Below are positions 2,683 to 29,752 of a stretch of 32,000 nucleotides of DNA, piece by piece. The stretch covers positions 2,010,001-2,042,000 of the forward strand of contig NZ_CP147990.1 of NCBI RefSeq assembly GCF_037902255.1, written 5' to 3'. The notes below the pieces were generated by a model. That model was not told the DNA's origin, did no database searches, and saw only the letters and a list, made by a program, of their open reading frames with translations. The position numbers and the translations under genes were made by a program. The stretch's first letter is position 1. Every line of letters begins with the position of its first letter. Source of the DNA: Candidatus Electrothrix sp. GW3-4. Its GTDB lineage: Bacteria > Desulfobacterota > Desulfobulbia > Desulfobulbales > Desulfobulbaceae.

Positions 2683-3443
2683 GATGCAACCTTGTTTATT
2701 TGTTTTTTGCGGACCAGCAGGGTGGAGAAATAATGGAGCTCCTTGTCTGCTGCCTCGCGGATATCAGTATAGATGTGCTGGTCGTCCATACCGCAACGCT
2801 CCAGCAGCACGGCTTTATCAGTCAGGCCCAGCTCATCAAGCAAGGCAATCACTGCGGGTAAACGGCGAAAGACCTTCATCAGCACCACCGCATCAGAGGT
2901 CTGCAGGATATCACGCAGGCGTGCATCGTCAAAGGCCGCAGGTACCACAGAAAGCACGTCATCGCCCAATCCCAGGGGGGCATTGACCTGAGCAGAGCAG
3001 GCGGACATCGCGGTGATGCCTGGTATAATCGTTACCGGCAAGTCATGACAGACCTCCTGCAGGGTATTGAGCAGATAAAAGGAGGTGGAATAAAGGCCCG
3101 GATCTCCCAGGGTGGGAAAAGCAACGTCCTCGCCCTGCTCAAGACGCTCCAGCACGATCCGGGCAGCCTTCTGCCAGCCCTGCTGCACCTCAGGATCATG
3201 TTCCTGCTCCAGGCGGATCTTCTTCATAGGAAAACGAACCTCCAGAACCTCCTTGTCAGCAGCCCCGACCATTGCCGAGGCGATCTGCAAGGCAGCACTG
3301 GCCCCGTCCGTCTTTGCCTTGGGTGCCACCCAGACCCTGGTCTGATCAAGGGTTCGCACCGCCTTATAGGTCATGAGCTCTGGATCACCAGGTCCAACAC
3401 CGACAAGATAAAGACGGCCTGTCTGTCCTGTTGTCATACTCAT
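2679..3443 (-). CDS. cbiL: Precorrin-2 / cobalt-factor II C20-methyltransferase
   Basis: It has a tetrapyrrole methylase fold signature, GRLYLVGVGPGDPELMTYKAVRTLDQ. Length (254 aa) and the pairing with cbiF fit CbiL/CobI. It is translationally coupled to cbiF. Confidence 0.85.
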   Translation of the reverse strand: MSMTTGQTGRLYLVGVGPGDPELMTYKAVRTLDQTRVWVAPKAKTDGASAALQIASAMVGAADKEVLEVRFPMKKIRLEQEHDPEVQQGWQKAARIVLERLEQGEDVAFPTLGDPGLYSTSFYLLNTLQEVCHDLPVTIIPGITAMSACSAQVNAPLGLGDDVLSVVPAAFDDARLRDILQTSDAVVLMKVFRRLPAVIALLDELGLTDKAVLLERCGMDDQHIYTDIREAADKELHYFSTLLVRKKQINKVAS

Positions 3444-5339: not shown

Positions 5340-8300
5340 TTATATGGTATTTGTTTTTGCACAGGTGAAACGAATGACAAACTCTGTCCCAGCTTCATGT
5401 TCCACCTTAATGCTTCCGCCCAGCTCATGGGTAACAATACCTACCACCAGCCGAAGGCCAAGAGAAGAAACATTCTGGAGATCAATCTCCGGGGGTAATC
5501 CGCTTCCGTTGTCGGTAACAGTCAGCTCAATAATATCGGCCTTATCTTCAGGCACGGTCAGACAGATCGATATATTACCACCCTGATCAGCAGAAAAAGC
5601 ATGTTTGAAGGCGTTGGTAATCAACTCGGCAATGACCATGCCCACCGCAATTCCCTGATCCATATTCATGCTTACCTCACACCGCTCCACCTTGAGGACA
5701 ATCCCCCTGCTCCAGGCATCATATGCCTGACTGAGATTTCGGCAAAGTTTGCCGAGATAGGTCTCAAAATCGATACGGGCCAGATCATCAGACTGATACA
5801 GGGCCTCATGGACCAGGGACATGGCTTCAATACGGGTTCGGCAATCATTGAAAATTTTTGTCAAATTCTCATCATCGGTCCGTCTGGTATACATCCGCAA
5901 CATCCCGACAATGACCTGCATATTATTTTTGACCCGATGATGAACCTCGCGCAGCAGGACTTCCTTTTCATTGAGGGCATGGCGAAGGGCCTGCTCTGCA
6001 TTTTTACGTTCCGTAATGTCAACACCGAGTCCACCGACATAGCGCTTGCCTGCCGACGCCCTGAATAAAAATTTATGATTGAGCCACCACACCTCCTTAC
6101 CGTCCTGGTCAACAGTACATTCAACAACTTCAACGGGCTTACCTGCTGTGAGGACCGTCTGGTCATTTTGTTGAGAAACTGTTGCAATCTCAGGTGGCCA
6201 CAGCTCAGAATCCGTCTTATCGAGCCAGTCCTTCTGCTGGACGCTGAAGCGTTTCTCGTAGTTATGACTGATAAAGACATACCGTCCTTCTTCATCTTTG
6301 AGCCAAGCGATGACTGTGCTGTTCTCCAAAAAAGACCGCAGCCGTTCTTCACTGTCTTTTAAGGCATCTTCGACCAGTTTTCGTTCAGTAATATCCTGTA
6401 CCGTTCCGGAAACATGCACAACCTCTCCTTGTTCGTCCCGAATGATCTCTGCAAGTTCCTGGACATATCGCACATCCCCCTGGGGCTGAACAATGCGGTA
6501 CTCAATATTACTGTCCCGCCCCTTGCTCAGCGCCTTTTTCCGCGCCCGCCGGAACTCTTTCCGGTCATCGGAATGGATAGCCTGTTCAAAGACTTGGGGC
6601 GTGACCCTGCAATGCTCTGCATCCTGGCCAAAAATCTTGTGCGCTTCCTCAGACCAGACAAGCCGATTGCTGTCCATATACCAATCCCAGTAGCCCATAT
6701 GGGCCATCTCCTGGGCCTGACGCAACCGTCTCTCGTTCTGCTGCAACAGCAGCACAGCCTCTTTTTGGGCGGTGATATCCTGACCAGTAGAAATCAAACG
6801 GGGAGCCCCCCCGATCTCGACAATAATGCTGCTGTACAGGCAGTGACGTAACTTTTTTTCTTTATTGCGGATAACAACCTCCTGGTTCTGAAGGCATCCA
6901 TCATTTTTGATTATGTCAACCAACCGTTCCCGCTCCTCAGGCACAATCATCCCTATCTCCATCGTTGTCCTGCCGATCAAATCTTCGCGGGAGTATCCGG
7001 CAACATCTATATATGTCTGGTTCACATCCAAAATTTTTCCGGTTTCGATCTCACTGAGAGCCATCATGACCGGTGCGGTATGAAAAACCCTGGAAAATTT
7101 TTCCTCGCTCTGTTTCAGTTCTGCCTCGTTTCGCTTTCGCTCGCTAATATCATCCACCAGGGCAACACAGTAATACAGGGAGTCGTCAGGAGTATAGACC
7201 GCATTTACATAGAGTATTGCGTACAGGATACTGCCGTCTTTGCGGAGGTAACGTTTCTCCACAGTATATCCTCTGATTTCACCGGCCAGCACCCGGTTGA
7301 ACTGTTCCAGATCAGCATCAAGATCGTCTGGACAGGTCAGATCAGACCAGGTTAATTCCGTCAATTCTTCGCGAGAATAACCGAGGAGACGACAAAAAGC
7401 ATCATTGAAATCAAGAAAGCCCTTTTCCGGGGAAGTCATGGCAATGCCGAAAAGTCCTGTATCCATAATTGCCCGAAACCGTTGTTCGTTCTCTCTTAGC
7501 GCTGCTTGGGCCTGCCTGAATCTGCTCACATCCAGGGTGACTCCGATGACCCGGGTGGCCCGGCCGTTACTGTCCCGTTCTGCAGCCTGGCCCAGCCCCT
7601 GGACGTAAATCCATTCCCCGGATTTCGTCCGCATCCGGACCTCAACTTCGTACTGTCCGCTCTCGCCCTCAATAAAATCCGTGTAGGCCTTATTCATGGT
7701 AAAGACATCATCTGGATGAACCCGTTCCATGAGCCAATTCGTGAAGAGATTATACGGGGGCAGTTCTTCCCTGGTGTAGCCAAGTATTCTGGCCCACTGT
7801 TTGCTATGGTAGAGTTCCTGGCCAATGGGCACCTTATGCTCATATATGCCAGCGCCACTGATGGCCAGGGCAGCTGACAGCCGGGATTGGGTCATCTTGA
7901 GGTCGATTTCATTCTGCTTCAGATCAGTGACATCGGCAAAGGTCAGCACCAAGCCGTCTACCCTATTATCCTGGGTCCTGAAGGGCAGGATACGGCGAAT
8001 AAACCACCGTCCTTCATCGGTTTTCACCTCCTTGGCCGAGGGCACCAAAGTATCCATGACCTGGGAGGCATGGCCCTGGAGCTCATCGTCACTAAAGCGC
8101 ATGGCGAGATCGCCGATGGGCCGCCCCACATCAGCAGGGATCAGGTTGAACAGGTGTTTTGCAGCGGGCGTGAAGCGTCTGATCGCCATATTAACATCGA
8201 GAAATACCGTGGCCACATCCGTACTGTTGATCAGATTGGCCATATCGTTATTGGCGTGTTCCAGTTCTCTGACCTTGTCCTGCAGTTCGGCATTGACCGT

Positions 8301-10448
8301 GGTCAGCTCTTCGTTCATGGACTGCAACTCTTCCTTGGAGGTCTCCAATTCCTCATTGGAAGACTGCAGTTCCTCGTTCATGGACATCATCTCTTCGTTG
8401 GAGGCCTTCAGCTCCTCGTTGGAGGTCTCCAACTCCTCAATGGTATTTTGGAGATCCTCCCGGGTGTCAAGCAACTCCGCCTCCAGCTGTCGCACCAGGG
8501 TTTCCTCGCCGAGATCAAGCTCTGCCGGAGTGCTGAAATCCTGTTCCGGTACGGGCCGATCTTCAAAGGTGAGGAGAAAAAGGGTCTCTGGCATCTCCCT
8601 TTCCCGAATCGGCGTAACGGTGAAGCTGACCGGATAATAGCGGTGGTCGCGTTTGATGCGTGCGTCCGAGACCGTGACTGTTTCTTTCTTTTTCATGGCC
8701 TTGTGGAGAGCGGCCCGGAGTTTCAGACGCAGCCCTTCTTTGACCATAGAGGTAAGATCCAGGACCGGATCGCCCTGGGGCAGGTCCAGGTATTGGGTCG
8801 TGGGCCCGTGCAGGTTCACTATACCAAAATTTTTATCCACCAGAACAGCAGCAGGCGCAAAGCGCTTTAACAACAGCGCCTGCATCAGTTTCGACATGTT
8901 CTGCCGGAACACATCAAGACGTATCTCCGGGACGATGCCTGGCGATCTGCCGGAAAAATTCAGGATAGGAATCTGCATCCGTTCATCCCGCTGGCCGATG
9001 CGACGATAGATACGCGATTCCTTGGACACGGTTTCGAAATGATTATGCTGATATCCGATGGTTTCGGAACTGCCCAGGACCAGATAGCCGTTTTCCCGCA
9101 GAGAAAAATGAAAGAGCTCAATAATTTTTTTCTGCACATCAGGATTGAGATAGATAAGCAGGTTGCGGCAGCTGATCAGATTCAGATTGGAAAAGGGCGC
9201 GTCACCGACCAGATTCTGGGCGGCAAAAACCACTGATTCGCGGACCCGACGCAGGATATGATATTCCTGCTCTTCATGAATGAAATATTTTTTCAGGTAC
9301 TCTGGTGGCACATTGGCACTGATCAGCTCAGGATAGACCCCTGAACGGGCCCTGCTGATGGCATCCGTATCAATATCTGTGGCAAAAATCTGGGCATTAA
9401 AATGTCTCCCTGCCTTATCAAAGGCCTCATGGACCAGGATGGCGATGGTGTAGGCCTCTTCCCCGGTGGAGCAACCAGGAATCCAGATCCGGAGCGGTGT
9501 ATCCGGTTCCATCTTTTCCAGCAGGTTTGGCAGCACTCTCTGGCTGACCTTTTCCCAGACCTGTTCCTCCCGAAAAAAACCTGTGACCCCGATCAGCAGA
9601 TCCTTGAGCAGGGCATCTGCCTCAGCAGGCTCTTTTTTCAGGATAGCAACATAATCCATCATACGCTGAACCTGCCGCATCCCCATCCGGCGTTCGGTCC
9701 GGCGGATCAGGGTATTACGCTTATAGCAGCGAAAATCGTGCCTGGAATGGGCCCGGATAACGGCCAGCACCTGATTCAGTTCATCCTGGTCTTCAATACT
9801 TATTTCCCCATGGACATAGGGATGGGCGATAAATTTGAGAATGGCCTCGGGCATGTCTTCGATGTCCAGAATAAAATCAACCATGCCCGTGTCAATGGCA
9901 CTCTTGGGCATGCCATCGTGCTGGGCTGTTTCCGGGGCCTGGGCAAGAACCAGCCCACCGTGTTCCTTGATTTCCTGGATACCCATGGTGCCGTCACGCA
10001 TGGTGCCGGACAGGATAATGCCGATGGCCTGTTCCTGCTTAGCAACAGCAAGGGAGCGAAAAAAGAAATCCACGGGCAGGTTGATTCCGCGCTGCCTGGA
10101 TATTTCACAGGTGACGAGATCGCCTTGCTCGAAAGCCAGGTTTCGGTTGGGCGGCACGATATAAATATGGTTTGCCTCCACTGTCACACGTTCATTCACC
10201 TGGATTACCGGCATCACCGTGTGACGGCTGATAATTTCCATCATCAGACTTTTATGGCCAGGATCGAGGTGGGGGATCATGACAAAGGCCAGGCCGCTGT
10301 TAGAGGGCATCTTTTCAAAAAATGACTTAAAGGCCTCCAGCCCGCCAGCTGAAGCGCCAATCCCGACAACAGGGAGTTTAGGGGTGATAATCTTCGTGTT
10401 GGATCCGGCCTCTTGGGGAACATGGGGACTATCTTTGGGAGTGGTCAT
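5340..10448 (-). CDS. CheB methylesterase-CheR methyltransferase-coiled coil-multi-PAS-HisKA_2/HWE-type histidine kinase fusion (1702 aa)
   Basis: The CheB-like segment is VVGIGASAGGLEAF...MPKSAIDTGMVD. The CheR-like SAM methyltransferase segment is RIWIPGCSTGEEAYTIAIL...ATDID. A heptad coiled coil follows (ELETSNEELKASNEEMMSMNEELQSSNEELETSKEELQSMNEEL). Several PAS/PAC units come next. The kinase core is EVHHRVKNNMQVI with a GHKL ATPase (ELITNAFKHAF, DNGSGLP). Confidence 0.9.
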   Translation of the reverse strand: MTTPKDSPHVPQEAGSNTKIITPKLPVVGIGASAGGLEAFKSFFEKMPSNSGLAFVMIPHLDPGHKSLMMEIISRHTVMPVIQVNERVTVEANHIYIVPPNRNLAFEQGDLVTCEISRQRGINLPVDFFFRSLAVAKQEQAIGIILSGTMRDGTMGIQEIKEHGGLVLAQAPETAQHDGMPKSAIDTGMVDFILDIEDMPEAILKFIAHPYVHGEISIEDQDELNQVLAVIRAHSRHDFRCYKRNTLIRRTERRMGMRQVQRMMDYVAILKKEPAEADALLKDLLIGVTGFFREEQVWEKVSQRVLPNLLEKMEPDTPLRIWIPGCSTGEEAYTIAILVHEAFDKAGRHFNAQIFATDIDTDAISRARSGVYPELISANVPPEYLKKYFIHEEQEYHILRRVRESVVFAAQNLVGDAPFSNLNLISCRNLLIYLNPDVQKKIIELFHFSLRENGYLVLGSSETIGYQHNHFETVSKESRIYRRIGQRDERMQIPILNFSGRSPGIVPEIRLDVFRQNMSKLMQALLLKRFAPAAVLVDKNFGIVNLHGPTTQYLDLPQGDPVLDLTSMVKEGLRLKLRAALHKAMKKKETVTVSDARIKRDHRYYPVSFTVTPIREREMPETLFLLTFEDRPVPEQDFSTPAELDLGEETLVRQLEAELLDTREDLQNTIEELETSNEELKASNEEMMSMNEELQSSNEELETSKEELQSMNEELTTVNAELQDKVRELEHANNDMANLINSTDVATVFLDVNMAIRRFTPAAKHLFNLIPADVGRPIGDLAMRFSDDELQGHASQVMDTLVPSAKEVKTDEGRWFIRRILPFRTQDNRVDGLVLTFADVTDLKQNEIDLKMTQSRLSAALAISGAGIYEHKVPIGQELYHSKQWARILGYTREELPPYNLFTNWLMERVHPDDVFTMNKAYTDFIEGESGQYEVEVRMRTKSGEWIYVQGLGQAAERDSNGRATRVIGVTLDVSRFRQAQAALRENEQRFRAIMDTGLFGIAMTSPEKGFLDFNDAFCRLLGYSREELTELTWSDLTCPDDLDADLEQFNRVLAGEIRGYTVEKRYLRKDGSILYAILYVNAVYTPDDSLYYCVALVDDISERKRNEAELKQSEEKFSRVFHTAPVMMALSEIETGKILDVNQTYIDVAGYSREDLIGRTTMEIGMIVPEERERLVDIIKNDGCLQNQEVVIRNKEKKLRHCLYSSIIVEIGGAPRLISTGQDITAQKEAVLLLQQNERRLRQAQEMAHMGYWDWYMDSNRLVWSEEAHKIFGQDAEHCRVTPQVFEQAIHSDDRKEFRRARKKALSKGRDSNIEYRIVQPQGDVRYVQELAEIIRDEQGEVVHVSGTVQDITERKLVEDALKDSEERLRSFLENSTVIAWLKDEEGRYVFISHNYEKRFSVQQKDWLDKTDSELWPPEIATVSQQNDQTVLTAGKPVEVVECTVDQDGKEVWWLNHKFLFRASAGKRYVGGLGVDITERKNAEQALRHALNEKEVLLREVHHRVKNNMQVIVGMLRMYTRRTDDENLTKIFNDCRTRIEAMSLVHEALYQSDDLARIDFETYLGKLCRNLSQAYDAWSRGIVLKVERCEVSMNMDQGIAVGMVIAELITNAFKHAFSADQGGNISICLTVPEDKADIIELTVTDNGSGLPPEIDLQNVSSLGLRLVVGIVTHELGGSIKVEHEAGTEFVIRFTCAKTNTI

Positions 10449-18553: not shown

Positions 18554-21500
18554 TTATCTTTCATATTCCTGTACCAATCTCCAGGTTAAACTCCTCATCC
18601 TGATGAGTTGCAAGATACTTTCAAGTTCCTCCGTTCTCTTTCGCAGATGCCTTCCGTCTTGCCAGATATGCCGTAAAATATCATGGAGGATATCCAGGGA
18701 TGCGCTGTCCGCAATCAACTCTATGCGGCGTCGGAGCACCCGCAGACCTGCTTCAAAACTCAGATCGTTAAAGCCTGCCTTGTAATCACAGGCTTCAACA
18801 TAGCAACGGAACATGGGGAGCAGGTCTTCACGACCGACCGGAGGCTTTCGAGGGATAAAGCTGTAGCTTTCCGAATCTGCTTCATCAGCCTGCTCTTCCA
18901 TTTGAAAACTCCTGCTGAACAGCACATCACCTTGTGTAATCCGGAATCGAGCTGCTACCCAAGGGTACTTATATCCTTCATCTTTTATTTTCCTCTCAAG
19001 ATCCTGCTCATATTTCACAACATCTTTATGAGCATTCCAATCATCATATTCTCCTGAGAAATAGATCGCATTCAGGTAGCTCTGGACTGCATCATCATAT
19101 TTGTCATGATGTTCACTGGCTTCACATACCGCAATGGATTGCTTGAGATATTCAAAGGCCCCAAGGCCGTCCTGATCATTCTTCCAGAAATGTCCGTTCA
19201 TCATCTGCAATTCACCCAGTTGAAAATATGCTTCAGCTGATTGCTGATGATAAAAGCGGATACGTTCTTGCAAAAACTCCTTCTGCTCCTTTTCCTTCAC
19301 TGAATCTAATCGTCCGCTTAACTCCTCCAGAGTTTGTTCAAGCTGCTTTTTACCTTGTTTCAGCAGGGTGAATGCCTTTTCTCGATCCCCCTCAAACTGT
19401 CTGTCAAACCTATCGCGTGCAGACGGCAATTCCTCCCGCAAATAAATTTCCAGCAGAGAGCCATAGCCGCCTTGGCGAAAATAAAATTCACCTTTGACAA
19501 TGTCCGTAAAGCCCTCCAGCCCCTGCTTCAAGATTGGATCAGTTATTTTGACTTGTGCCTCGATATCCTTTCCCTCAATGGCGTCTCGGGCACGTTCATA
19601 ACAAAGCCGGGTATAATGAACATCTCCCAAGAGGCGATATAATCGGCTCTGGCGACTCAGGCGACAGGCAACTTTTTCCTGATATATCTCGCTGCCGGTC
19701 TGTTTAGCCTGAAGCCGATAACCGTCAATCAGGCATTTGTTCAACAAAACCGCATCGCGGTACTTACCGTCATCTTCAGCTTGTTGAATAGCCTGTTTCA
19801 GGCCTTTGATCGTTCCTTGTCTGTCCTCTTCAGTTAGCTGCAACAATTCGATATAGCTGAAGATGATTTTAAAATCAGAAATATCATACTGCCAGTCCTC
19901 AGGATTCTTTTTCAGCCAGGCAAGAATCTCCTCCGCAACCACCCGCTGCTTTTTGATCAGGGTGATTAAACGGTTATAACATACCCGCAACACCAAAAAG
20001 TACCGATCCTTGTTGAATTTCTTTTTATATAATGCCGCAGAAAAATAATGCCTGAACGCCTTATTCAATAGCTTTATCTCTTTGATGCAGTTAGCATCAC
20101 GGGTATTTTTTGCCTGAAGCCGATCCAATGCGCTGTCGAACGCTATATTCCCCAAGGTCAATTCATAACGACCCATGAGATTCGGATAGCGTTCCATTTC
20201 CGACCGTAAATCAACCTCTAATTGTTTCCGGTACTGTTGCTGTTTTTGCTCATTTTCTATTTTTTTCTCGTTTGATAAATTTTCTGCTGCATAATTCCAA
20301 AAGTAATACAAGGCGACCAAACTTTCTAAGGCATCAATATGACTATAGCGAAACTGGCTGATCTCAGCGGATTTCGCAGCCTGAAGAAATGCCTGTTCAG
20401 CTTCCCGCCATTTATCGGCTCTCCATGCTTCAGGCGTCATCATATATAGCTCGCCCAGATTGAAATAGGCATCTGCCAGCTCTTTATGCGAAACAGGATC
20501 TTCAGATTCGCCTTGAAGAATTTTGATGGCTTCCTTTGTATGCTCCACTGCGCTTCTAAGTAGTTCCGCTCGCAAGCTACCCTGTTTGGTAAAGGTATTA
20601 TTAACAGCATAACGCAGCTCTCTTGCCCGGTAATACTCTATCATATAGGCAGACTCTAGAGAGTCATAGGACAGCCAGCAATAATTGCTCTGTAAACGGC
20701 CACCCAGCAGAGGATCCGGTATTTCCCTATAAATTCTTTTCGCTTGTTCCAAATAAGAACGGGCGTCCATACTACGACCGGCGACGGCCAGCACATGGGC
20801 TATTGTATTCAATGATCTGAAGATCTCTTTTTTATTGCGAGGGAGGCTCTCAACAATATTAAATTGCATTTCTGCATATCGTATTGATTCGGAAAACTTC
20901 CCTTTATAACGATACAGCATAGCAAGGTTTCCGTAGGTGTACTGAATACGCTGTTGGAGATTCCTTTTCTTCCTTGTACCCGCATCCAATTCTTTTCCTA
21001 ATAGGTCCAAGAGCCCGTCTAAGCTCTGCTTCATCCAGCCTTCTGCCTCATTAAAATCAGCTTTTCGGTAATACGTATAGCCGATCCAGTTTTCAGCAAG
21101 AAATACCAGGTCTTCTTGCCTCTCATGAGCAATAAAAATCTCTCTCGCCTCCTTCAGAAAACGGATGGCCTTATCAAATTCGTCCAGCCAGAAATAGGCA
21201 ATCCCCTCCCAGAGTTTAAACTTCCCGAAAAGCAAAGAACTTTCCCAGGATGCATCAGCTTGCTGCTGTTCATTTACTGATTTGATGATACCTAAAGCTC
21301 TTGGAATATCTTGTTCATTGCCATCAATATAATACCGAGCATCCCGTAACTCAACTTCGAGTTCAACGAGTAATGAGGGGGTGTATTTATCACAGCAAGA
21401 TACGGTTTCACGGCCGAGAAGGCTAGCATAGGCCCCTCGCCCATCCTCCATTGCCATATCAAATTCATCACAAAACCGTTGTACGCCTTCATCAGCATCT

Positions 21501-23497
21501 GCCATAAAGGTATATTCAATAAGCTCCGGTGTATACACCTCCCGTTTTTCCTGCATGACATCTTGTTTGGCCGCATCAATCAGTATGTCGATGTATTTTT
21601 CCAGCTCGTCTTGATCCAACCTGATGTTCAAGAATGAACAAAACTTTTTCTCTGTAAAAAACAGATTGTTAAAATCAATTACTTTATTCAAAATGCTTTC
21701 GGGGATTTTTTTCCCCCGCAAACGGCTGAAAGACAAGTCTGTCAGCCTGTAATCCGGCGACAGAAATTTATCCTCATAATAACGAACTAATTTTCCTGCG
21801 ATCTCCCTTTGTTGACGTTGATCAGGATCCACCCAGTTTTTCCAATGCGTTTCAAGCAAATCCCGCATCTCATCGTGGAGCAGGATAACATCTCCTTTAC
21901 CTTTATCTTTTTTATGTTTGATAAAAGATAGGGGGCTCAATTCGTTAAGTGTTTTCTGACAATTTCCCAGAGTGTCGTCGGTTAAATACTGCATGATTGC
22001 AGGAGTCATCCGGCGATAGGCCACGGCCATAGGATAAATGAACTTTCTTGCAGCGGGATCATTCCAGCACCATTGAATAACAGCCTTTTCAAAATTTGCT
22101 TTTTTTTCCTCATCGGCAAGCTTATTAAGCTCATCTAACAGTTCCCCCGGTTCGCGATTTCCGCTATTAAACCGATACCAGTCCATAAAGAGCGCTAGAT
22201 AAATCGGACGATAACCGGATAATTCGAAAATTTGATCAAGCTGATTTTCTGTCAGTTGAAGCTCTTCGAGCAGATCATCCAGCGTGTTGATGTTTGCTGT
22301 ATCCTTCAGACATGCCCTTAGGAAATCTGTCGCCTCAGAAGAGTCAAATAGATTAAGAGGAAGCTCGGAACTACCCGCTTTCTTATTAACAAGCGGATAA
22401 CGCCCTGCAATAACAATTCGTGTGTTGTCTGATAACAATCCAGGAAAAAGCTTATCTTCCAGCCAGCTAGAAAAGTCTGTATGGTCTGCCTTCTTTTTCT
22501 CACGATCAACCCGTTGAATTACCTCATATGTATCAAAGAAGAGAACGATTATCCGGCCCTCTTTTTTTGCCTTGTCGGCAAAATGTTTATAGTCTTCTTC
22601 TAAGGCGGTTAATACATTATCTAAGAGATATTGACGCTTACTGCTATCCTTGGTTCGACGATATTCCTTGAGCTGATAAAGAACATTCGAAAACTGATCA
22701 GAGCCTAATTGTTTAATGAGCTGTTTGATAACCCCCGCTTTAGAACGAGTTTCAGTATGATAAAGGTCAATTAGTTCGTCACTGGTTATGATTCTTTCGG
22801 CATATTCAGATTGATGGCATATCTCCTGCATTTGCAACAGAAGCTGCGTCTTACCGACGCCTCCATCACCATTTGTATGAATATCCAAGATAAAAGATCT
22901 GGAATTAAAAAGGAATTCTTCCTTAAATTGTTCTAACTCTTTTTTACGCCCTACAAAAATAGATGATTCTATCGTGGGCCGATTCTGCGTTCCGTCATGA
23001 CCAGCAGACCGTTCCGGCTGAACACTATGAATAGCGAAATTATCCCATAGTTGTTTTTTGATCTGCGCTTCAGTTTCAGTTTCAAACTCCAGTAATTTTC
23101 CGAGTTTTTCCACCAAATCCTTTGGCATCGCAACCTTCAGATCGGAACCCACATATTGAACAGAGAGGACTTTCTCAAAAAACGAATAGTTACTGTTTCC
23201 TACAAGTAAACCATGTAAGTACCTAAAAAGTTTTTTATTAAGGAATTCTCTATCGTTGCTTTGTCGATAGAAGATAATATTTTGGAATTCTTCGATGTTA
23301 CAGAGCCCCTGTCGAGCTGCCCTGATGTTATCCCGCTTGATTTTCTTCTCTTTAATTGCACCAGTAATATTTTGGTATTTTTCATCATCACAATTGAATG
23401 CATTCAGATCCAATTGTAATTCTTCTATCTCACTGTTAAGTTCGCCCAATTCTTTTCCAAGCTGGTCATATTTTTTCTGTAATTCATGAAAAGTCAT
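18554..23497 (-). CDS. Giant STAND-type P-loop NTPase with N-terminal coiled-coil/unknown domain and very long C-terminal TPR array
   Basis: The listed ORF starts at a TTG (23527). The first ATG is 23497 (MTFHELQKKY), with GGAG 7 nt upstream. FVGRKKELEQF precedes Walker A GDGGVGKT (nt 22847-22870). Walker B is RIIVLFFDTYE, the sensor-like strand is RIVIAGRY, and the GxP-like motif is SGYRPIYLAL. Roughly 900 aa of TPR-like repeats follow (for example GNLAMLYRYKGKFSESIRYAEMQ, LADAYFNLGELYMM, AEAYFQLGELQMM). Composition is AT-rich. Confidence 0.85.
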   Translation of the reverse strand: MTFHELQKKYDQLGKELGELNSEIEELQLDLNAFNCDDEKYQNITGAIKEKKIKRDNIRAARQGLCNIEEFQNIIFYRQSNDREFLNKKLFRYLHGLLVGNSNYSFFEKVLSVQYVGSDLKVAMPKDLVEKLGKLLEFETETEAQIKKQLWDNFAIHSVQPERSAGHDGTQNRPTIESSIFVGRKKELEQFKEEFLFNSRSFILDIHTNGDGGVGKTQLLLQMQEICHQSEYAERIITSDELIDLYHTETRSKAGVIKQLIKQLGSDQFSNVLYQLKEYRRTKDSSKRQYLLDNVLTALEEDYKHFADKAKKEGRIIVLFFDTYEVIQRVDREKKKADHTDFSSWLEDKLFPGLLSDNTRIVIAGRYPLVNKKAGSSELPLNLFDSSEATDFLRACLKDTANINTLDDLLEELQLTENQLDQIFELSGYRPIYLALFMDWYRFNSGNREPGELLDELNKLADEEKKANFEKAVIQWCWNDPAARKFIYPMAVAYRRMTPAIMQYLTDDTLGNCQKTLNELSPLSFIKHKKDKGKGDVILLHDEMRDLLETHWKNWVDPDQRQQREIAGKLVRYYEDKFLSPDYRLTDLSFSRLRGKKIPESILNKVIDFNNLFFTEKKFCSFLNIRLDQDELEKYIDILIDAAKQDVMQEKREVYTPELIEYTFMADADEGVQRFCDEFDMAMEDGRGAYASLLGRETVSCCDKYTPSLLVELEVELRDARYYIDGNEQDIPRALGIIKSVNEQQQADASWESSLLFGKFKLWEGIAYFWLDEFDKAIRFLKEAREIFIAHERQEDLVFLAENWIGYTYYRKADFNEAEGWMKQSLDGLLDLLGKELDAGTRKKRNLQQRIQYTYGNLAMLYRYKGKFSESIRYAEMQFNIVESLPRNKKEIFRSLNTIAHVLAVAGRSMDARSYLEQAKRIYREIPDPLLGGRLQSNYCWLSYDSLESAYMIEYYRARELRYAVNNTFTKQGSLRAELLRSAVEHTKEAIKILQGESEDPVSHKELADAYFNLGELYMMTPEAWRADKWREAEQAFLQAAKSAEISQFRYSHIDALESLVALYYFWNYAAENLSNEKKIENEQKQQQYRKQLEVDLRSEMERYPNLMGRYELTLGNIAFDSALDRLQAKNTRDANCIKEIKLLNKAFRHYFSAALYKKKFNKDRYFLVLRVCYNRLITLIKKQRVVAEEILAWLKKNPEDWQYDISDFKIIFSYIELLQLTEEDRQGTIKGLKQAIQQAEDDGKYRDAVLLNKCLIDGYRLQAKQTGSEIYQEKVACRLSRQSRLYRLLGDVHYTRLCYERARDAIEGKDIEAQVKITDPILKQGLEGFTDIVKGEFYFRQGGYGSLLEIYLREELPSARDRFDRQFEGDREKAFTLLKQGKKQLEQTLEELSGRLDSVKEKEQKEFLQERIRFYHQQSAEAYFQLGELQMMNGHFWKNDQDGLGAFEYLKQSIAVCEASEHHDKYDDAVQSYLNAIYFSGEYDDWNAHKDVVKYEQDLERKIKDEGYKYPWVAARFRITQGDVLFSRSFQMEEQADEADSESYSFIPRKPPVGREDLLPMFRCYVEACDYKAGFNDLSFEAGLRVLRRRIELIADSASLDILHDILRHIWQDGRHLRKRTEELESILQLIRMRSLTWRLVQEYER

Positions 23498-23535
23498 GCA
23501 ACTACTCCACGATCTGGTGTTAATCAAGTAAAAAA

Positions 23536-25062
23536 TTATACCGACTCAATAATTTCTAATAATTTTGTAACATCAATCATTAGGCATAATTCTTTATCCC
23601 TCTCCAGAACATTTTTCAATCGGCCAATTTGGTCACGAACCAAATATTCATCTCCAATATATTCTTTAGTAAAATAACTGTTCAGATATTCTTTCAGCTT
23701 CTTCGCGATATTTTGAGTAATATTTTCTACACGTTCTTCTGTCATCAATAACGTCGTATGATACAGCCGTTCAACTATATTCTTGATCTGGCTGGCATCT
23801 CTGGTCTGTTCAATCCAGCGATCATATTGTTCAATCAATGCCCGCTGTATCTCAATAAATTTTTCTTTATGATTAATGCGTAAATCTAAAAGCAATATAT
23901 TCCGAGTAACCTCCTCAAGATCAAAACCGGCACCGAGAGTCCAAGGGGTAAAAATGTGTATCTTGTTTTGAAATTCAGTAATAAGATCATGAAAAAAAGA
24001 AAAAGATTGATCTTTAAAACTACCTGGAAGAAATCGAGATAAAATAAAATGGAAGGTGCTAAATTCAATACGTCGCAAGGGAGCAAGACAAGAAAGAATG
24101 GCCTCCGGTGAAGGATACTTAGAGCTTAATTCTAACTTTTCAAGGACTCGATTTTTAATTACTTTATCAATCAATTCCTGAATACTGCGATTATAATGCT
24201 CGTTAATAATTTCAGCTGTTACTATCTTTCTGAAGCCAGCACTCAAAAAATCAAGAAATGTATAACTACTGAACGGGTGACCTAGTGTTAGCATCCATAA
24301 TTTATTAAGAAGATCACTTTTGTTTTCAGCAGACAAGTGATTTTGAGATAAAAGACGGTCAACAAACTCTTCAGTATCTCGCAAAGATAGTCGCTGCATC
24401 TGATGCCGCTTAACCCTCCTGCGCAAAGTAGGACTTATCCATCCCCATCTCTGCTGACCAGCAAAAATAGCTATAAAATTATTGTTATCAATAAATTTAA
24501 GCAATATTTGTTCCTCAAGACGATGAATAATAGAAGGGCACGCCCGCTCTGTACTATCGAAGCAGATTACAATTTTATACTCCCTTAATAAATCTTGCAA
24601 AATTATCGTGAAGCCATTAAGCAGTTCTTCTTCTTTTCTATCAATAGGTTTCCGGTCTGCAGTTTCTGGGACGTCCCAAAGTTGTCTGTGGTATTTTTGA
24701 AGTTCCTCAATATAACTATTCAACCGCTCATTAAAATTATTGAAATGACTTGATATTTTTTCTTTACCTGAAAAATCATCAACTACTTCTTGCAATATCG
24801 GATAAATCTCCGGTCGATAAAATTGTGGCTCATTTAAATCAATATAGGCAGCTAACCATTTTTTTCCCTTTATGGTTTCAGTAAAAAAGTACTTCAAAAG
24901 CTCCGTTTTACCCTGTCCAGAAATCCCGGTAAATTCCAAGAAATGTTTTTCTTTCTCTTCACCATTAAGAATATTTCCTAATAATTCTTTTTCATCTTTC
25001 CGGTTAACAAACAAATCAGAATCAAATTCGATGTCTCTTTTTATTTTTATTTTCATTTTCAT
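23536..25062 (-). CDS. STAND/AAA-like P-loop NTPase (508 aa), paralogous to the NTPase module of the downstream giant protein; no recognisable sensor repeats
   Basis: FVNRKDEKELL precedes Walker A GISGQGKT. Walker B is KIVICFDSTE, the sensor-like strand is FIAIFAGQQ, and the GxP-like motif is LGHPFSS. The C-terminal half is helical. The AAGGAG RBS is better spaced for the third-codon ATG at 25056. The gene stops 8-38 nt before the next gene. Confidence 0.8.
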   Translation of the reverse strand: MKMKIKIKRDIEFDSDLFVNRKDEKELLGNILNGEEKEKHFLEFTGISGQGKTELLKYFFTETIKGKKWLAAYIDLNEPQFYRPEIYPILQEVVDDFSGKEKISSHFNNFNERLNSYIEELQKYHRQLWDVPETADRKPIDRKEEELLNGFTIILQDLLREYKIVICFDSTERACPSIIHRLEEQILLKFIDNNNFIAIFAGQQRWGWISPTLRRRVKRHQMQRLSLRDTEEFVDRLLSQNHLSAENKSDLLNKLWMLTLGHPFSSYTFLDFLSAGFRKIVTAEIINEHYNRSIQELIDKVIKNRVLEKLELSSKYPSPEAILSCLAPLRRIEFSTFHFILSRFLPGSFKDQSFSFFHDLITEFQNKIHIFTPWTLGAGFDLEEVTRNILLLDLRINHKEKFIEIQRALIEQYDRWIEQTRDASQIKNIVERLYHTTLLMTEERVENITQNIAKKLKEYLNSYFTKEYIGDEYLVRDQIGRLKNVLERDKELCLMIDVTKLLEIIESV

Positions 25063-25116
25063 ATCTCCTTGCTGGACTCTCCTGGAAATTCCTCACTTAT
25101 TTTTGGACAAAAAAAG

Positions 25117-26190
25117 TCACCTCATCCGATTCTGAAAGTGTTCCTTGTCGTCGTAATGTATAAAATAAGAAGAGTCGAAACAAAAATTAATCCTGAATCT
25201 ATCAGTGAAGAACAAAATAAAATCTTCTTGAAATCTTTTAAACCATCCTCTATGCTTGGTTATCACATTCAACTCACTGATACAAATAAATATTCCATTA
25301 TGGTTATTACAAACTTCTTGAATTAAATTATGAACTTTGTAGTGTTGCCCAAAAAAATCATTTAATATTCTCTCTTTCTTATTTACCTCTCTACTATAGG
25401 AATTTTCTAAATATGGAGTAAATATCGGACGTACTTCTTCAGCTTTCTTTTCTCCTGCAAGATTGCAAATTATCGCGAATGCCATCCTGTACACTGCATT
25501 CTCGTAATTTTTAGTTTTTATAACATTTCCGAGCTGTATGATATACAATCCCCTTTTTTGCGGATTTAGTTTTACAGCATTTCCCTCTGAAATATCCTGG
25601 AGAGGTTTCCAAAGATCGGCAATACGATACAGCGGCATTCCAAAAACTGTACCTTCCGCTGGGATTGCCTGAATCTGCAACGCTACAACAGCTTGCAATT
25701 TATCACTGAAAATAGCACTGCCGCTATAACCTCGTTCATCTGCATCTTCACTTCTAAACCTAAAAACACGATGGCAGTTCAACCGTTCGTAATTCCCTAT
25801 AAAATGTCCTTTACAGGCACACATATATTTAAGACTTATTCCAAATCCATAAAGTCGAAATTCACCTAAATTACTTGATGCGGATTCTATTAATTGTATC
25901 GGCAAGAAGCGATATTGCTCCGATTGAAAATCTAATTTTAGCACGGCATAATCAATCCCCATCTCCTTTTGATATCCCCAGCTGACCCTATTTGCAAGGC
26001 AAGGGGCCTCTCCTAAGAATTGGACATAAATTTCTTTCTTAGGTTCTGCCGTCCCCAATAAATGACCTGCTGTCAGCAGATGCCCCTCACTACTCACAAG
26101 CCAAGCAGTACCAACTGGCTCACCCTTATCATTTAAGACAGCACAGGTAGCCTGTTGAATATCATCATCAGATATATTTTGTTTGCCCAT
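25117..26190 (-). CDS. Trypsin-like (S1/Trypsin_2-type) serine protease with an unassigned ~155-aa C-terminal domain
   Basis: The putative triad is H43 (LLTAGHLL), D80 (GIDYAVLKL) and S156 (ERGYSGSAIF), in the order and spacing of chymotrypsin-fold bacterial proteases. No signal peptide is visible, so it is probably cytoplasmic. Residues ~200-357 match nothing I recognise. Confidence 0.8.
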   Translation of the reverse strand: MGKQNISDDDIQQATCAVLNDKGEPVGTAWLVSSEGHLLTAGHLLGTAEPKKEIYVQFLGEAPCLANRVSWGYQKEMGIDYAVLKLDFQSEQYRFLPIQLIESASSNLGEFRLYGFGISLKYMCACKGHFIGNYERLNCHRVFRFRSEDADERGYSGSAIFSDKLQAVVALQIQAIPAEGTVFGMPLYRIADLWKPLQDISEGNAVKLNPQKRGLYIIQLGNVIKTKNYENAVYRMAFAIICNLAGEKKAEEVRPIFTPYLENSYSREVNKKERILNDFFGQHYKVHNLIQEVCNNHNGIFICISELNVITKHRGWFKRFQEDFILFFTDRFRINFCFDSSYFIHYDDKEHFQNRMR

Positions 26191-26225
26191 TGCAAATACT
26201 GCTCTCGTTCTGATTGTTGCTCACT

Positions 26226-26537
26226 TTACCAAATTAATTTTACTTTTAAGACAGAATCCGCTTTTACTCCTATAACCCATACTTTCGTTTGAGCTGAGAA
26301 TCCAAGAGAGAATTCTACTTCCATCTGCTTAACACCGCTTTCTTCACGAAATTTATTTAAGTCATTACCGAGATCTTTAGCCATATTCTTAATGACAGTT
26401 TTTGCCTTTGCATATGCATCCTGAATATCATCTTCAATACCGGTATCGACGGGGACATTTAACCCTTCCAATCTATCATCCATAGCCTGGATCAAAACAT
26501 CAGTCTCTCCAATACGTTCTCGTATGACTTTCATCAT
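26226..26537 (-). CDS. Trypco2-like (trypsin co-occurring domain 2 / CU044_2847-family-like) small protein
   Basis: This 103-aa protein has the C-terminal pattern MEVEFSLGFSAQTKVWVIGVKADSVLKVKLIW. That matches my recollection of the family signature (VEVEFG..L..E.G..I.K......FKVKLTW). It lies directly upstream of a trypsin-like protease gene, the defining context. AGAGGGG RBS is present. Confidence 0.7.
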   Translation of the reverse strand: MMKVIRERIGETDVLIQAMDDRLEGLNVPVDTGIEDDIQDAYAKAKTVIKNMAKDLGNDLNKFREESGVKQMEVEFSLGFSAQTKVWVIGVKADSVLKVKLIW

Positions 26538-26674: not shown

Positions 26675-27028
26675 CTACCCCTCCTCCCCCTGCTCCACCT
26701 TCCTCGCCTGACGCTTCCGCTCACTTGTCCTCGTGCCGCCGATCATATCGTATTCCTCAGAATTGGCCCCGAAAATCCCCTTGACCACCGCCCGCACCTG
26801 CACCATATGATCACTCAGATTCTCTGTCTTATCCCCTTTCCGATCAACCAACCGGGTCCGTTCGACATTAACAGCATCCAGGTCATCAATCACATCCTCC
26901 AGCTCGGTCACCTTTGTTTGCATATCCGCAGCCTTTAGCCCCTCAGGAATACGATCATCGATTTTCTCCAGGGCCTTTTTCATCTCATTGGCCTCCTGCA
27001 ACAACTTGGGTACGCTTTTATTCAACAT
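26675..27028 (-). CDS. Hypothetical coiled-coil protein (117 aa), backbone-like GC
   Basis: A strong AAGGAGG RBS lies 6 nt upstream of the ATG at 27028. The sequence is helical and charged (LQEANEMKKALEKIDDRIPEGLKAADMQTKVTELEDVIDDLD) with a basic tail (GGTRTSERKRQARK). I recognise no family. Confidence 0.6.
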   Translation of the reverse strand: MLNKSVPKLLQEANEMKKALEKIDDRIPEGLKAADMQTKVTELEDVIDDLDAVNVERTRLVDRKGDKTENLSDHMVQVRAVVKGIFGANSEEYDMIGGTRTSERKRQARKVEQGEEG

Positions 27029-27060
27029 AGAAGCCTCCTTTTCTTTTCAGTGCAGGCATC

Positions 27061-27280
27061 TCTCTTAAAAATGGCCAGCACTCTTTTAAAATTCCCTGCC
27101 CCTCTTTTAAAAAGACAGGCCTGACTTTTAAAGATACACGCCCCACTTTTAAAAAGAGAGGACCTTCTTTTTCAAAGAGAGTCCTGACTTTTAAAAAATG
27201 GCCTCTCTCTTTTTAAAATATGCCGCCTTCTTTTCCAAAGAAGAGGCTCTATTTTACAAAGTGCATGCCTGCTTTTTCGT
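27061..27280. repeat. Phased array of ~11 palindromic TCTTTTAAAAGA-like sites with 21-bp spacing
   Basis: The T/A junctions of the cores fall after 27066, 27087, 27108, 27129, 27150, ~27172, 27192, 27214, ~27235, ~27256 and ~27277. That gives a 21-bp period with a single 1-bp register shift between units 7 and 8 (core centres hand-counted; the four tilde-marked, interrupted cores are only approximate). The ~11-bp spacers are GC-rich and variable. No ORF spans the array. It lies 20-250 bp upstream of the 117-aa gene. Confidence 0.85.
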
Positions 27281-27841
27281 ATTGCTGCGTAGCTTAACCT
27301 TGTTGAGCAGGCTGCTGTTTGTTGTCTTCTTGCCTCGAATCTATACAGAACATGCTCATGCAAAGAGCGTCAAGCAAAAAAGATATCATATCAACATATT
27401 AATAATGATTCAGATTCCCAAAACACCTGAATCTCCTTGGGAGGCAGGCAAAGAACCCCGTTCTTTGTTCCTTAAAAAATATTTTTGGCCAAGGTCTGCA
27501 AAGAAAGATCACGTTAAGAGGAAAACGGTTGGCAAAGCCGACCAAGCTTCCCTTCGTTCATGTTTTATTGTCCCGGAGCGCTGGGCAGGGATGGAAATTA
27601 TATTGAAAAAAACGGCAGGTTTGCCTGAAAAGAAGGGGTGCGGCTGGATGGGGCAGAAAAAAAAGAGAAGAGAGGACGAAGTCGGTCTTCGCCCTCAGGG
27701 CAGGACAACAGGGGGCCTTGTAACGGATCACGACATCAATATCTCCTCAAGCGGAAGATGAATATCCAAGACATCGTCAACAACATCACCCTGGGTTCAT
27801 GCGTTTTTATGCATTGCATGATCTACAAAAAGGGCGGGAGA

Positions 27842-29431
27842 TCAGTTATGCTCCCTGGTCTTGTGAAAGACGATATCCGGGAAGAGCTCAGCAGTATGGT
27901 TGAGCCGCCATTGCCCGTCCGCCAGAAAGGCCAGATGCCCCTCCGCATCATGGGCCAGATTGCCCTGATTCTTGGCCTCAAAGGTCTTGAGCTTTTTCGC
28001 ATCATCACAGGTCACCCAACGGGCCAGGTTATACTGCACCACTTCGTAAATCGCATCCACATTATACTCGGCCTTGAGCCGGGCCATGGTCACTTCAAAC
28101 TGGAGCACCCCCACTGCGCCGAGGATATAATCACTGCCCATCACCGGACGAAAGAGCTGTACAGCCCCCTCTTCCGCCATCTGTACCAGGCCCTTATGGA
28201 GTTGCTTGGTCTTGAGCGGATTCTTTAACAGGACCCGGCGAAAATGTTCAGGGGCAAAGTTAGGGATACCCGTGAACTTGAGCTGTTCTTTATCGGTAAA
28301 GGTATCACCAATCTTGATGGTGCCGTGGTTATGGATGCCAATGATATCTCCGGGATAGGCCTCATCCACATTGGCCCGGTTCTGGGCCATGAAGACCGTG
28401 GCCTTGCTCAGATTGACCTCCTTACCCAGGCGGTGATGCCTGACCCGCATCCCCCGGGTAAACTTGCCTGAGCAGATCCGGAAAAAGGCGATGCGGTCAC
28501 GATGGGCCGGGTCCATATTGGCCTGGATCTTAAAGGTAAAGCCGCTAAAGGCCTCTTCATGGGGCGCCACTTCCCGGGAGAGGGCAGCGCGGGGGCCAGG
28601 AGGCGGAGAAAGCTCGATAAAATTATCCAGCAGCTCTTTGACGCCAAAGTTATTAATGGCACTGCCAAAGAAGACCGGGGTCTGACCTGCCTTGAGATAC
28701 TCCTCATACTCAAAGGGATTGGCCGCACCATGGAGCAACGCCACATCCTCCCGCAGCTGCTCCGCATCAGGTCCGCCCAGGAGCTCATCTAAGCGGGGAT
28801 CATCCAGGCCCTTGACCGTGATCCGATCCTCTGGACGGGTCTCCTGGCTCGGGGTAAAAAGGCTGAGCTCATTACGATGGAGGTCGTACACCCCCTTGAA
28901 GCCCTTGCCCATGCCAATGGGCCAGGACAGGGGCGCACATTCGATCTGGAGTTTCTCTTCAATATCGGCAAGGATATCTAAGGGGTCCATGCCGTCCCGG
29001 TCCAGTTTATTGATAAAGGTGATGATGGGCGTATTGCGCATCCGGCAGACCTCCATCAGCTTGGTGGTCTGGGCCTCTACGCCCTTGGCTGAATCAATCA
29101 CCATCAGGGCCGAGTCCACAGCCGTAAGGACCCGGTAGGTATCTTCGGAGAAATCCTGATGGCCTGGGGTATCCAGGAGGTTGATCTCAAAATCCCGGTA
29201 ATTAAACTTCATCACCGAGGTGGTCACTGAGATACCGCGCTCCTGCTCAATGGACATCCAATCGCTGGTGGCATGGTTGGCGGTCTTGCGGGATTTCACC
29301 GCGCCCGCCATCTTGATCGCCCCGCCAAAGAGCAGGAGTTTTTCCGTCAGGGTGGTCTTGCCCGCATCCGGATGACTGATAATGCCAAAGGTGCGCCGTT
29401 TTTCTATTTCTCTTTTCAGCTTACTGCTCAC
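27842..29431 (-). CDS. prfC: Peptide chain release factor 3 (GTPase)
   Basis: [29 protein letters not shown] (G1), DTPGHQDF (G3) and NKLD (G4) are present, with full-length similarity to RF3. The listed ORF begins at a TTG (29485, 547 aa). An in-frame GTG at 29431, preceded by TAAGGT, gives 529 aa, the usual RF3 length. Confidence 0.95.
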
Positions 29432-29752
29432 AAAGGATACCTTATCGGCTTGACCGATGGTTAGGATTATGGGTACTTTTTTCAAGAGCGTTTTTTTCTC
29501 TGTTCTCTCCCTGTTTTCTCTCTGCTCAACAGGACCTGAACCTTATCTTCATCAACGCAGCAGAGCAAACACTGTCCTGCCTGTCCTGCGTAACAACGAC
29601 AGGGGGAACATCCGCTTTGATTCGCTTTGCATTCTTTGGCAGGCAAAATACCGTCTTTTGCTCTTTTATGCAAGAATCGTCAGCAGCAAAGAGGGATTCC
29701 TTGTTCACTTCCCTCCTTATGATCTCCCTGCTCGCAAGGACAAAAAAACAAC

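Follow-up and report, generated by a model that had tools for sequence, protein, structure and literature searches.

A 21-nt phased repeat array upstream of a small-protein gene family in cable bacteria: a putative leader or operator of an undescribed kind

Short motifs repeated at even intervals are known from several bacterial control systems. In CsrB, the motif recurs with a period of about 18-20 nt, and CsrB/RsmZ often presents its motif copies on or between small hairpins. The trp leader of B. subtilis carries 11 (G/U)AG repeats, which are bound by TRAP. In attenuators of the trp, pyr and T-box type, neighboring segments, four in number, pair left or right (1:2/3:4 versus 2:3). Here we describe an array of 21-nt units upstream of the gene for a 117-amino-acid (aa) protein of Candidatus Electrothrix sp. 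GW3-4, located within a 32,000-nt stretch of the chromosome (contig NZ_CP147990.1, positions 2,010,001 to 2,042,000; hereafter, the window means this whole stretch). A preliminary description of the same DNA had proposed a phased array of palindromic, iteron- or operator-like sites. The array in the window is real and far beyond chance, and, as judged from the sequence, it appears to be a conserved control element of an undescribed kind that is coupled to the gene.

When the sequence was printed in 21-nt rows from position 27060, nnCTTTTAAAAnG was column-aligned in 10 successive rows (27060-27269), and row 11 (27270-27290, TGCTTTTTCGTATTG...) was found to be a degenerate unit. The 21-bp phasing claimed earlier was confirmed by this row alignment, by Tandem Repeats Finder (periods 21 and 42 over 27082-27234), by the lag-21 identity of the window leader (0.58, z = 11.5), and by a search for pairs of units (CTTTTAAA-N13-CTTTTAAA, at most 2 mismatches), which gave 9 matches, every one within the array, against 0.06 +/- 0.28 expected from 100 dinucleotide shuffles. 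The single 1-bp register shift that had been placed within the array is unneeded; the core, (C)TTTTAAAA(G), exists in T5A4 and T4A5 versions that mimic a shift, and the period is exactly 21 bp without it. On the minus strand, which is the sense strand of the gene, each unit is composed of a pyrimidine-rich arm, U4-5, A4-5, G, a purine-rich arm and a short variable stretch. Only about 9-10 bp are conserved as the core within the window array, and in the spacers the sense strand is rich in G. The cores had been described as palindromic, and mostly they are; they are also asymmetric, since in ten arrays of the window's own group (group A, see below) G directly follows the A-run in 68 of 83 cores on the sense strand, against C directly 5' of the T-run in only 52 of 83. 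As stated before, no reading frame is open through the array. The array is the one found in the whole window; the similar motifs that had been pointed out near its end (31921 and 31941) are isolated and form no array. The 21-bp period puts the A-tracts in phase with the helix, as in intrinsically curved DNA. The tracts are T4A4, however, and such tracts are said, after the work of Hagerman, to be far less curved than A4T4.

The array was found to travel with the gene. Close homologues of the 117-aa protein number 46, and those with a name all belong to cable bacteria of Candidatus Electrothrix. In E. scaldis, strain AW5 and two further assemblies, the homologue adjoins ilvBN, transketolase or other unrelated genes, and each of these orthologous loci has an upstream gap of 550-740 bp with the same TTTTAAAA array. 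The units of the orthologues lie at fixed distances from ATG (about -234, -213, -192 ... -44); because these distances are conserved, the units are orthologous one by one. Insertions and deletions in the orthologous leaders measure 21 or 42 nt, that is, whole units. Between loci in differing contexts, homology begins at about -450/-490 and breaks off at the stop codon; conservation of the leader (72-80%) is about equal to that of the open reading frame (ORF). Since homology spans this stretch across contexts, the promoter block, the repeat leader and the ORF together form the unit of inheritance. Dispersal was scanned in 248 kb of cable-bacterial DNA plus the 32-kb window, and all of the 30 periodic T4A4 hits in the 248 kb were located within 400 nt upstream of a family gene.

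These results bear on several points of the preliminary description. It had considered that the array might prove to be a dispersed repeat, or that relatives might lack it; the hits in the scanned DNA are confined to family genes, and nearly every checkable relative has a phased pattern upstream. Its placement of the array in the region right upstream of the ribosome-binding site (RBS) of the 117-aa gene was correct, and the element seems to be functionally tied to that gene. The link to prfC and the defense island was not borne out: orthologues bear the same array in the contexts named above and also beside a tRNA, so that both neighbors in the window appear incidental. A homologue with 53% identity (L007, 4001-4372) has its N-terminal 35 residues replaced and lacks the array, and its upstream spacer after glnA is only 107 nt; rearrangement or decay of this copy is probable, which makes it a natural array-less control. 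Toxin-antitoxin pairs (VapB/PIN, DUF433/DUF5615) often flank family genes, as at L003, L006, L184 and L187, though such pairs are abundant in these genomes and the adjacency may mean no more than that. The contigs of L002 and L191 begin 35 and 14 nt upstream of ATG, at the array edge; short-read contigs tend to break there, so that metagenome assemblies probably contain too few of the family leaders or cut them short.

A scan of species-representative genomes gave 24 family loci, all from Electrothrix, Electronema or related metagenome-assembled genomes of Desulfobulbaceae, several of which contain 2-5 paralogues each, and 28 further loci came from a metagenome scan. With few exceptions, the paralogues are preceded by an array of about 250 nt. 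The unit sequence differs by group, with TTTTAAAA cores in groups A and B, CTTGCAGGAAGAAATCG or ATTGCGGAGGCTCGCAAGTCA in group C, and CATAGGAAGAAA...TTTCTTCCTATG in group D. The top autocorrelation lag was 21, 42 or 63 in 27 of 28 cable-bacterial leaders tested; z ranged from 5 to 11.5 in 25 leaders and was about 3.3 in L131 and L141, and L007 gave no signal. The phase of the T-run plus A-run, expressed as position relative to ATG modulo 21, was identical in six of the seven groups (A, B, D, D2, E and E2). No open frame through the arrays is conserved, and most leaders contain stops in every frame; a coding heptad repeat (21 nt = 7 codons) was rejected on these grounds. The lag-21 signal of L150 was discarded as a run of N. 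At the metagenomic locus L169 (1-553), an array of 42-nt units extends more than 520 nt upstream of ATG, against the usual 10-12 units, and each of its units carries a promoter-like pair, TTGACG-16-TAACGT.

The family extends far beyond these bacteria. A profile search of 1.84 billion representatives (E <= 1e-3) gave 546 clusters at 50% identity, comprising proteins of about 110-125 aa with the common C-terminal motif FG.DS.EY..GGTR.SERK..P.RK. Six remote loci with upstream DNA were taken as the remote set. L192 (66% GC) has clean 21-nt units with seven copies of GAATGCCCGGAGGCTTCTTCC (z 9), L180 (65% GC) a period of 42/21 (z 6-8), L190 (54% GC) a 62-63-nt repeat in three copies (z 7.6), and L184 (66% GC) a period of 40-41 (z 5.4). 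The signal is weak in L183 (52% GC, period 21, z 3.7) and in L187, a HIP1-containing, cyanobacterium-like locus (39% GC, period 20/40, z 2.8-3.8). The period is thus family-wide and the TTTTAAAA motif, on which attention had been focused, is not; what is conserved in the element appears to be its period, not its sequence.

Strong sigma70-like promoters (TTGAC[GT]-16-TAnnnT or TTGATA-17-TATAAT) were predicted in groups D and D2 and at L133 and L171, with the -10 ending 277-438 nt before ATG, and the differences of this distance within a group are multiples of 21. The candidates of group A are weaker and lie inside the conserved block. The best candidate in the window (Table 1) has its -10 ending 364 nt upstream of ATG, and the equivalent hexamers in L006 are TTGAGA-16-TATTAT. 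Between this candidate and the array, a T-run, CTTGACG (27368-27373, as cgtcaa on the plus strand) and TATAGA (27341-27346) are found, the latter two making an alternative promoter-like pair with an over-long spacer. The inverted repeat over the candidate -35 has 8-nt arms, with one G.U on the sense strand, and a 9-nt center; it is possibly a regulator site or the 5' stem of the leader. Because the arrays reach to about 30 nt from ATG, a proximal promoter does not fit, and one within the last group-A units was judged unlikely, the -10 candidates there being without the conserved final T. At L143, a cyclic di-GMP-I (c-di-GMP-I) riboswitch (2872-2950, plus strand; 48.8 bits, gathering score 35) was detected behind a TTGACA-type promoter, some 230 nt before the array and on its strand, where the family gene comes next; this suggests that the copy is under c-di-GMP control. 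No other riboswitch was detected in about 50 family loci scanned with Rfam; the sole other hit was a tRNA, and both hits lie outside the arrays. From the promoter predictions and this one upstream riboswitch, we infer that the array is transcribed in cable bacteria. On the plus strand of the window, adjacent T4A4 cores at 27065-27219 pair as sigma70-like -35/-10 elements (TTTAAA-17/18-TAAAAT) antisense to the gene, and the -10-like hexamers of the array on the sense strand end in G; antisense transcription from the array may occur.

Pairing of the putative transcript was then compared between strands; covariation rests on 5-10 related sequences per group, and the counts are not independent. 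The minimum free energy was lower on the sense strand than on the antisense strand in 27 of 27 leaders. After column-shuffle normalization, the sense strand also had the better local RNAalifold consensus in each of the seven groups, with sense/antisense z of -2.2/+0.5 for A, -5.9/-1.1 for B, -3.8/-2.3 for C, -5.6/-4.6 for D, -5.7/-4.3 for D2, -2.0/-1.1 for E and -3.8/-0.7 for E2. For helices defined by Watson-Crick pairs only, G.T mismatches numbered 66 against 37 for A.C, and a cruder per-sequence hairpin count went in the same direction (37 to 21). In group D2, the 54 local pairs were paired to 91.7%, against 40-48% in slid controls; 8 pairs had changed on both sides, a number reached by 7 of 500 shuffles, and the covariation score was 0.219 against 0.166 in shuffles (0/500). 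Within one leader, separate units bear different complementary arms, a feature that fits folding rather than the DNA operator of one protein. Every group's predicted ensemble has two dyad centers about 10.5 nt apart, as arises from a tandem array of near-palindromes, so that each arm can pair with either neighbor. Unit-specific arm pairing was upheld only in group B (p = 0.013). For group A, a model of one hairpin per unit with unit-specific arms was rejected, as the real units fold no better than chimeric ones (p = 0.75) and the fixed-center arm test was negative. From the strand asymmetry and the covariation in the sister groups, we infer an action at the RNA level.

Our preferred reading, to which we give about an even chance, takes the array to be a 5' leader that is built from repeats, transcribed, and active in cis on the mRNA for the small protein. 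The leader, about 300-360 nt long with the array as its body, would belong to the 117-aa gene, and promoter block, leader and ORF would make a self-contained module, inherited and duplicated as one throughout the family. Since each 21-nt module would consist of a pyrimidine arm, a U-run, an A-run and a purine arm, the arms within one leader would be mutually complementary and the RNA would fold into either of two small-hairpin registers. The Shine-Dalgarno (SD) region would stand roughly at the place of the last purine arm; in the phase profile, the A-run and GGAGG before the 117-aa gene do fall roughly at the purine-arm position of a terminal unit. The leader would control translation and/or stability in cis, either by offering about 10-12 evenly spaced U4A4G copies (in the window's group) to a trans-acting binder or, alternatively, as a register-switching chain of hairpins. 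The identity of the binder and the regulatory outcome are guesses, and an outcome that hinges on a bound factor seems more likely than simple sequestration.

Several observations weigh against an RNA leader. The excess of G.T is moderate and the sequences are related. The consensus of group A is weak (about -4 kcal/mol, with the z of -2.2 given above), the sense-strand covariation expected of a structured cis-leader being seen in the sister groups, and the arms of group A show no unit-specific complementarity. Its conserved T4A4 core fits sequence recognition, of DNA or of RNA. An exact two-turn period across divergent relatives has a natural explanation in DNA and no obvious one in RNA. At equilibrium, the predicted folds leave the SD mostly free (probability of being unpaired, 0.56-0.81), so that simple sequestration of the SD is unsupported. 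Finally, L192 and L184 have good sigma70-like promoters between array and ATG, and the array would therefore lie upstream of the transcription start at these loci, unless a further promoter is present.

A phased operator at the DNA level is a live rival, although we hold it to be on the unlikely side. A cooperative protein, possibly the 117-aa product itself, would polymerize on it with a repeat of two helical turns, and this nucleoprotein filament would repress or activate the gene and so exert autoregulation. The preliminary description had suggested such a cooperative array with the adjacent protein as a candidate binder. It would account for the exact 21 bp in the window and for the recurrence of about 20-21, 40-42 or 62-63 nt despite unrecognizable units, even in remote GC-rich homologues; group A, keeping only the T4A4 core and with weak RNA structure, agrees with it, as does the position of the L192 and L184 arrays upstream of a strong promoter-like site, usual for an upstream regulatory array. 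Structure prediction gives the protein the form of a long helical hairpin that carries a conserved basic tail: the tail would touch one A/T-rich patch per 21 bp (about 71 Å), and the 54-residue helix, about 80 Å long, would correspond to roughly 21 bp of B-DNA. The cable-bacterial arrays, however, lie wholly downstream of the predicted promoters and reach close to ATG, and differing complementary arms, with compensatory and G.U-type changes, are stronger on the mRNA strand; promoters and mRNA-strand pairing agree better with an RNA leader. The GGTR.SERK tail, the best-conserved part of the protein, does not vary, yet the units are wholly different among groups, so that sequence-specific self-recognition through the tail is unlikely, and no similarity to a DNA-binding fold, including ribbon-helix-helix, helix-turn-helix and H-NS, was detected for the 117-aa protein. 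Nor are the sites of relatives strictly on one face of the helix; the geometry there is looser than had been claimed, the core-to-core spacing alternating between 19 and 23 bp in several orthologues.

The remaining explanations are judged improbable to different degrees. The leader could serve as an SD mimic providing a landing pad for the 30S subunit, or as a multi-site CsrA-like target or sponge. Purine arms do resemble the true RBS (AAAAGGAGG); GGAGG, GAGG or CAGGA occurs in every unit of several groups and remote homologues, among them L143, group C, L184 and L192; and SD-like tetramers are enriched in C (6.5 versus 3.9), E (6.3 versus 2.9) and the remote set (5.7 versus 3.8). No such enrichment is present in group A (3.3 versus 3.1 shuffled) or B (1.6 versus 2.1), mean anti-SD pairing at the purine phase amounts to -2.5 to -3.5 kcal/mol against about -10 for a real SD, GGA stands in just 2-3 of 10 window units, and no Rfam CsrB or Rsm match was obtained, which leaves this explanation improbable. 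Still less credit is given to a functionless tandem satellite or a remnant like a miniature inverted-repeat transposable element (MITE) or repetitive extragenic palindrome (REP), hitchhiking beside the gene. Several copies per genome in variable contexts, often near toxin-antitoxin genes, and changes by whole units, as repeat recombination predicts, would suit such a remnant, but place and phase relative to ATG are fixed across paralogues of about 50% identity and remote homologues, leader and ORF are equally conserved, single units correspond between species as orthologues and have not been homogenized recently, and position-independent copies, as of MITE, REP or bacterial interspersed mosaic elements (BIME), were never seen off a family gene in the DNA scanned. 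Least plausible of all are plasmid iterons or a partition centromere (parC/parS-like), to which the array had been likened. The resemblance lies in the geometry, tandem units of about 21 bp with an A/T core being like iterons (17-22 bp) and ParR-type centromeres. No Rep, ParA, ParM, ParB or adaptor gene was found near the array or at any related locus, the neighbors in the window being the unmatched 117-aa protein, prfC and the Trypco1/trypsin/STAND genes; the array is chromosomal, by prfC and core genes, with 3-5 copies per genome, each before a paralogue, and its unit is unconserved in the family.

More speculatively, the protein might assemble together with the leader or operator of its own gene, a subunit to each 21-nt unit, into a tropomyosin-like autoregulatory nucleoprotein filament, or else at least 10 mutually exclusive hairpins might relay a folding decision over about 250 nt to the RBS; at L143, this decision could come from the 5' c-di-GMP riboswitch. 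We offer this pair of ideas tentatively and consider it doubtful that either applies.

The features of the locus are collected in Table 1. Two minus-strand genes, prfC and the 117-aa ORF, are separated by 813 bp, of which the array takes up the 3' third; the GGAGG and ATG of the 117-aa ORF are 20-35 nt from the last array unit. The 117-aa protein was predicted (mean predicted local distance difference test score, 88) to form helices at 6-22 and 33-86, making a helical hairpin, and a short helix at 91-95, followed by a predicted disordered, basic tail with the invariant motif S.EY.M.GGTR.SER. No relative of it was found in Pfam, NCBIfam, PADLOC, a PDB sequence search or Foldseek-PDB, and the family was not found in a viral contig collection. 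A scan of viral contigs for TTTTAAA-N12-16 in three copies was set aside as uninformative, at least 120 chance matches arising in AT-rich giant-virus DNA. Literature searches for the 117-aa family, its locus tag, and cable-bacterial riboswitches or leaders found none of them described.

Table 1. Coordinates of the array, its gene and neighboring features in the window
Feature	Position	Strand	Basis or remark
Gene for the 117-aa protein	26675..27028	-	ORF; no family match; 546-cluster wider family
SD GGAGG (27034-27038) and ATG (27026-27028) of the 117-aa gene	27026..27040	-	Sequence; block AAAAGAAAAGGAGG conserved in all group-A leaders
Repeat array, 10 clear and 1 degenerate 21-nt units	27060..27290	-	Row alignment, Tandem Repeats Finder, autocorrelation, orthologous unit distances
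Presumed 5' part of the leader, candidate promoter to array	27291..27392	-	Conserved block in group-A alignment; cross-context homology runs through
Best sigma70-like promoter candidate, TTGGGA (27416-27421), 17 nt, TATGTT (27393-27398)	27393..27421	-	Predicted; similar hexamers in orthologues
Inverted repeat over the candidate -35, sense ATTCAGGTGTTTTGGGAATCTGAAT	27408..27432	-	Near-invariant columns across five genomes
prfC	27842-29485	-	Terminator-like hairpin at 27696-27672

Downstream of the 117-aa gene and on the same strand, genes for Trypco1, a trypsin-like peptidase and two STAND/tetratricopeptide-repeat (TPR) NTPases follow in DNA of 35-45% GC, and no terminator was detected between the 117-aa gene and Trypco1. 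This conflict-system cluster (18554-26537, minus strand) encodes Trypco1 of 103 aa, a Trypsin_2 peptidase of 357 aa with a weak LmuA-like PADLOC match, a STAND-like NTPase of 508 aa and an AAA_16/TPR protein of 1657 aa. A second lag-21 stretch at 8170-8590 (Tandem Repeats Finder periods 21 and 63) lies within a 1702-aa ORF (5340-10448, minus strand); it has the look of a coding repeat, of heptads or of 21 residues, and has no relation to the leader array. Rfam and tRNA scans of the window gave 0 hits, sub-threshold Rfam hits being noise.

Cable bacteria are not yet in pure culture, and to our knowledge almost nothing is known about their gene regulation. The small-protein family to which the element is coupled is widespread, multi-copy in cable bacteria and of unknown function, and an answer as to RNA or DNA would be the first functional handle on it. 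With about 820 nt, the module is compact and portable. That the period stays at exactly 21 nt and the phase to the start codon stays fixed while the sequence drifts would represent a geometric constraint absent from the catalogs of riboswitches, leaders and operators. If true, either the assembly filament or the hairpin relay would be a new class of cis-regulatory architecture, and the 21-nt period a physical ruler common to a gene family of more than 500 sequence clusters in several phyla.

Comparison with described systems places the array apart from each of them: it has the defining features of none, and no curated RNA or protein family covers it. Its function would bring it closest to multi-site protein-binding RNAs (CsrB/RsmZ, the TRAP-bound trp leader) or to attenuators, and its geometry to ParR-type centromeres, iterons and phased Fis/H-NS sites. 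No Rfam 15 family was found at or above the gathering threshold in the window. As had been stated, the array is not CRISPR, since it has a 21-nt period and a core of about 10 nt instead of 28-37-nt repeats with unique spacers, and no CRISPR-DR family matched at the gathering threshold. With CsrB/RsmZ and the TRAP-bound trp leader, it shares about 10-20 even copies of a short motif in one RNA and, with the latter, the location in the 5' leader of the regulated gene. The motif, however, is U4A4G or other, not GGA or (G/U)AG, and the period is 21, not about 5 nt as for TRAP; GGA is not enriched in group A, and its presence in the units is partial in groups C and E, L184 and L192. With attenuators, the array shares the choice of pairing partner, here extended to every arm; it has at least 10 repeated segments in place of four, and no U-tract terminator hairpin, leader peptide or predicted SD sequestration was found. 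The 21-bp period lies in the range of iteron units; within the array, a core of about 9-10 bp is conserved, and the unit sequence varies within the family. Like ParR-parC and pSK41-type centromeres, iterons, and Fis, H-NS or Fur sites, it combines units of one or two turns, an A/T core, a small adjacent gene whose product might be the binder, and whole-unit variation; unlike these phased DNA-site systems, it is chromosomal, multi-copy and, in cable bacteria, downstream of predicted promoters, and its unit varies while the tail of the protein stays constant. Short imperfect palindromes, possible in tandem and folding as RNA if transcribed, are shared with REP/BIME, BOX, ERIC and Correia elements, but in contrast to these dispersed and position-free repeats, the array stands only upstream of one gene family and in fixed phase.

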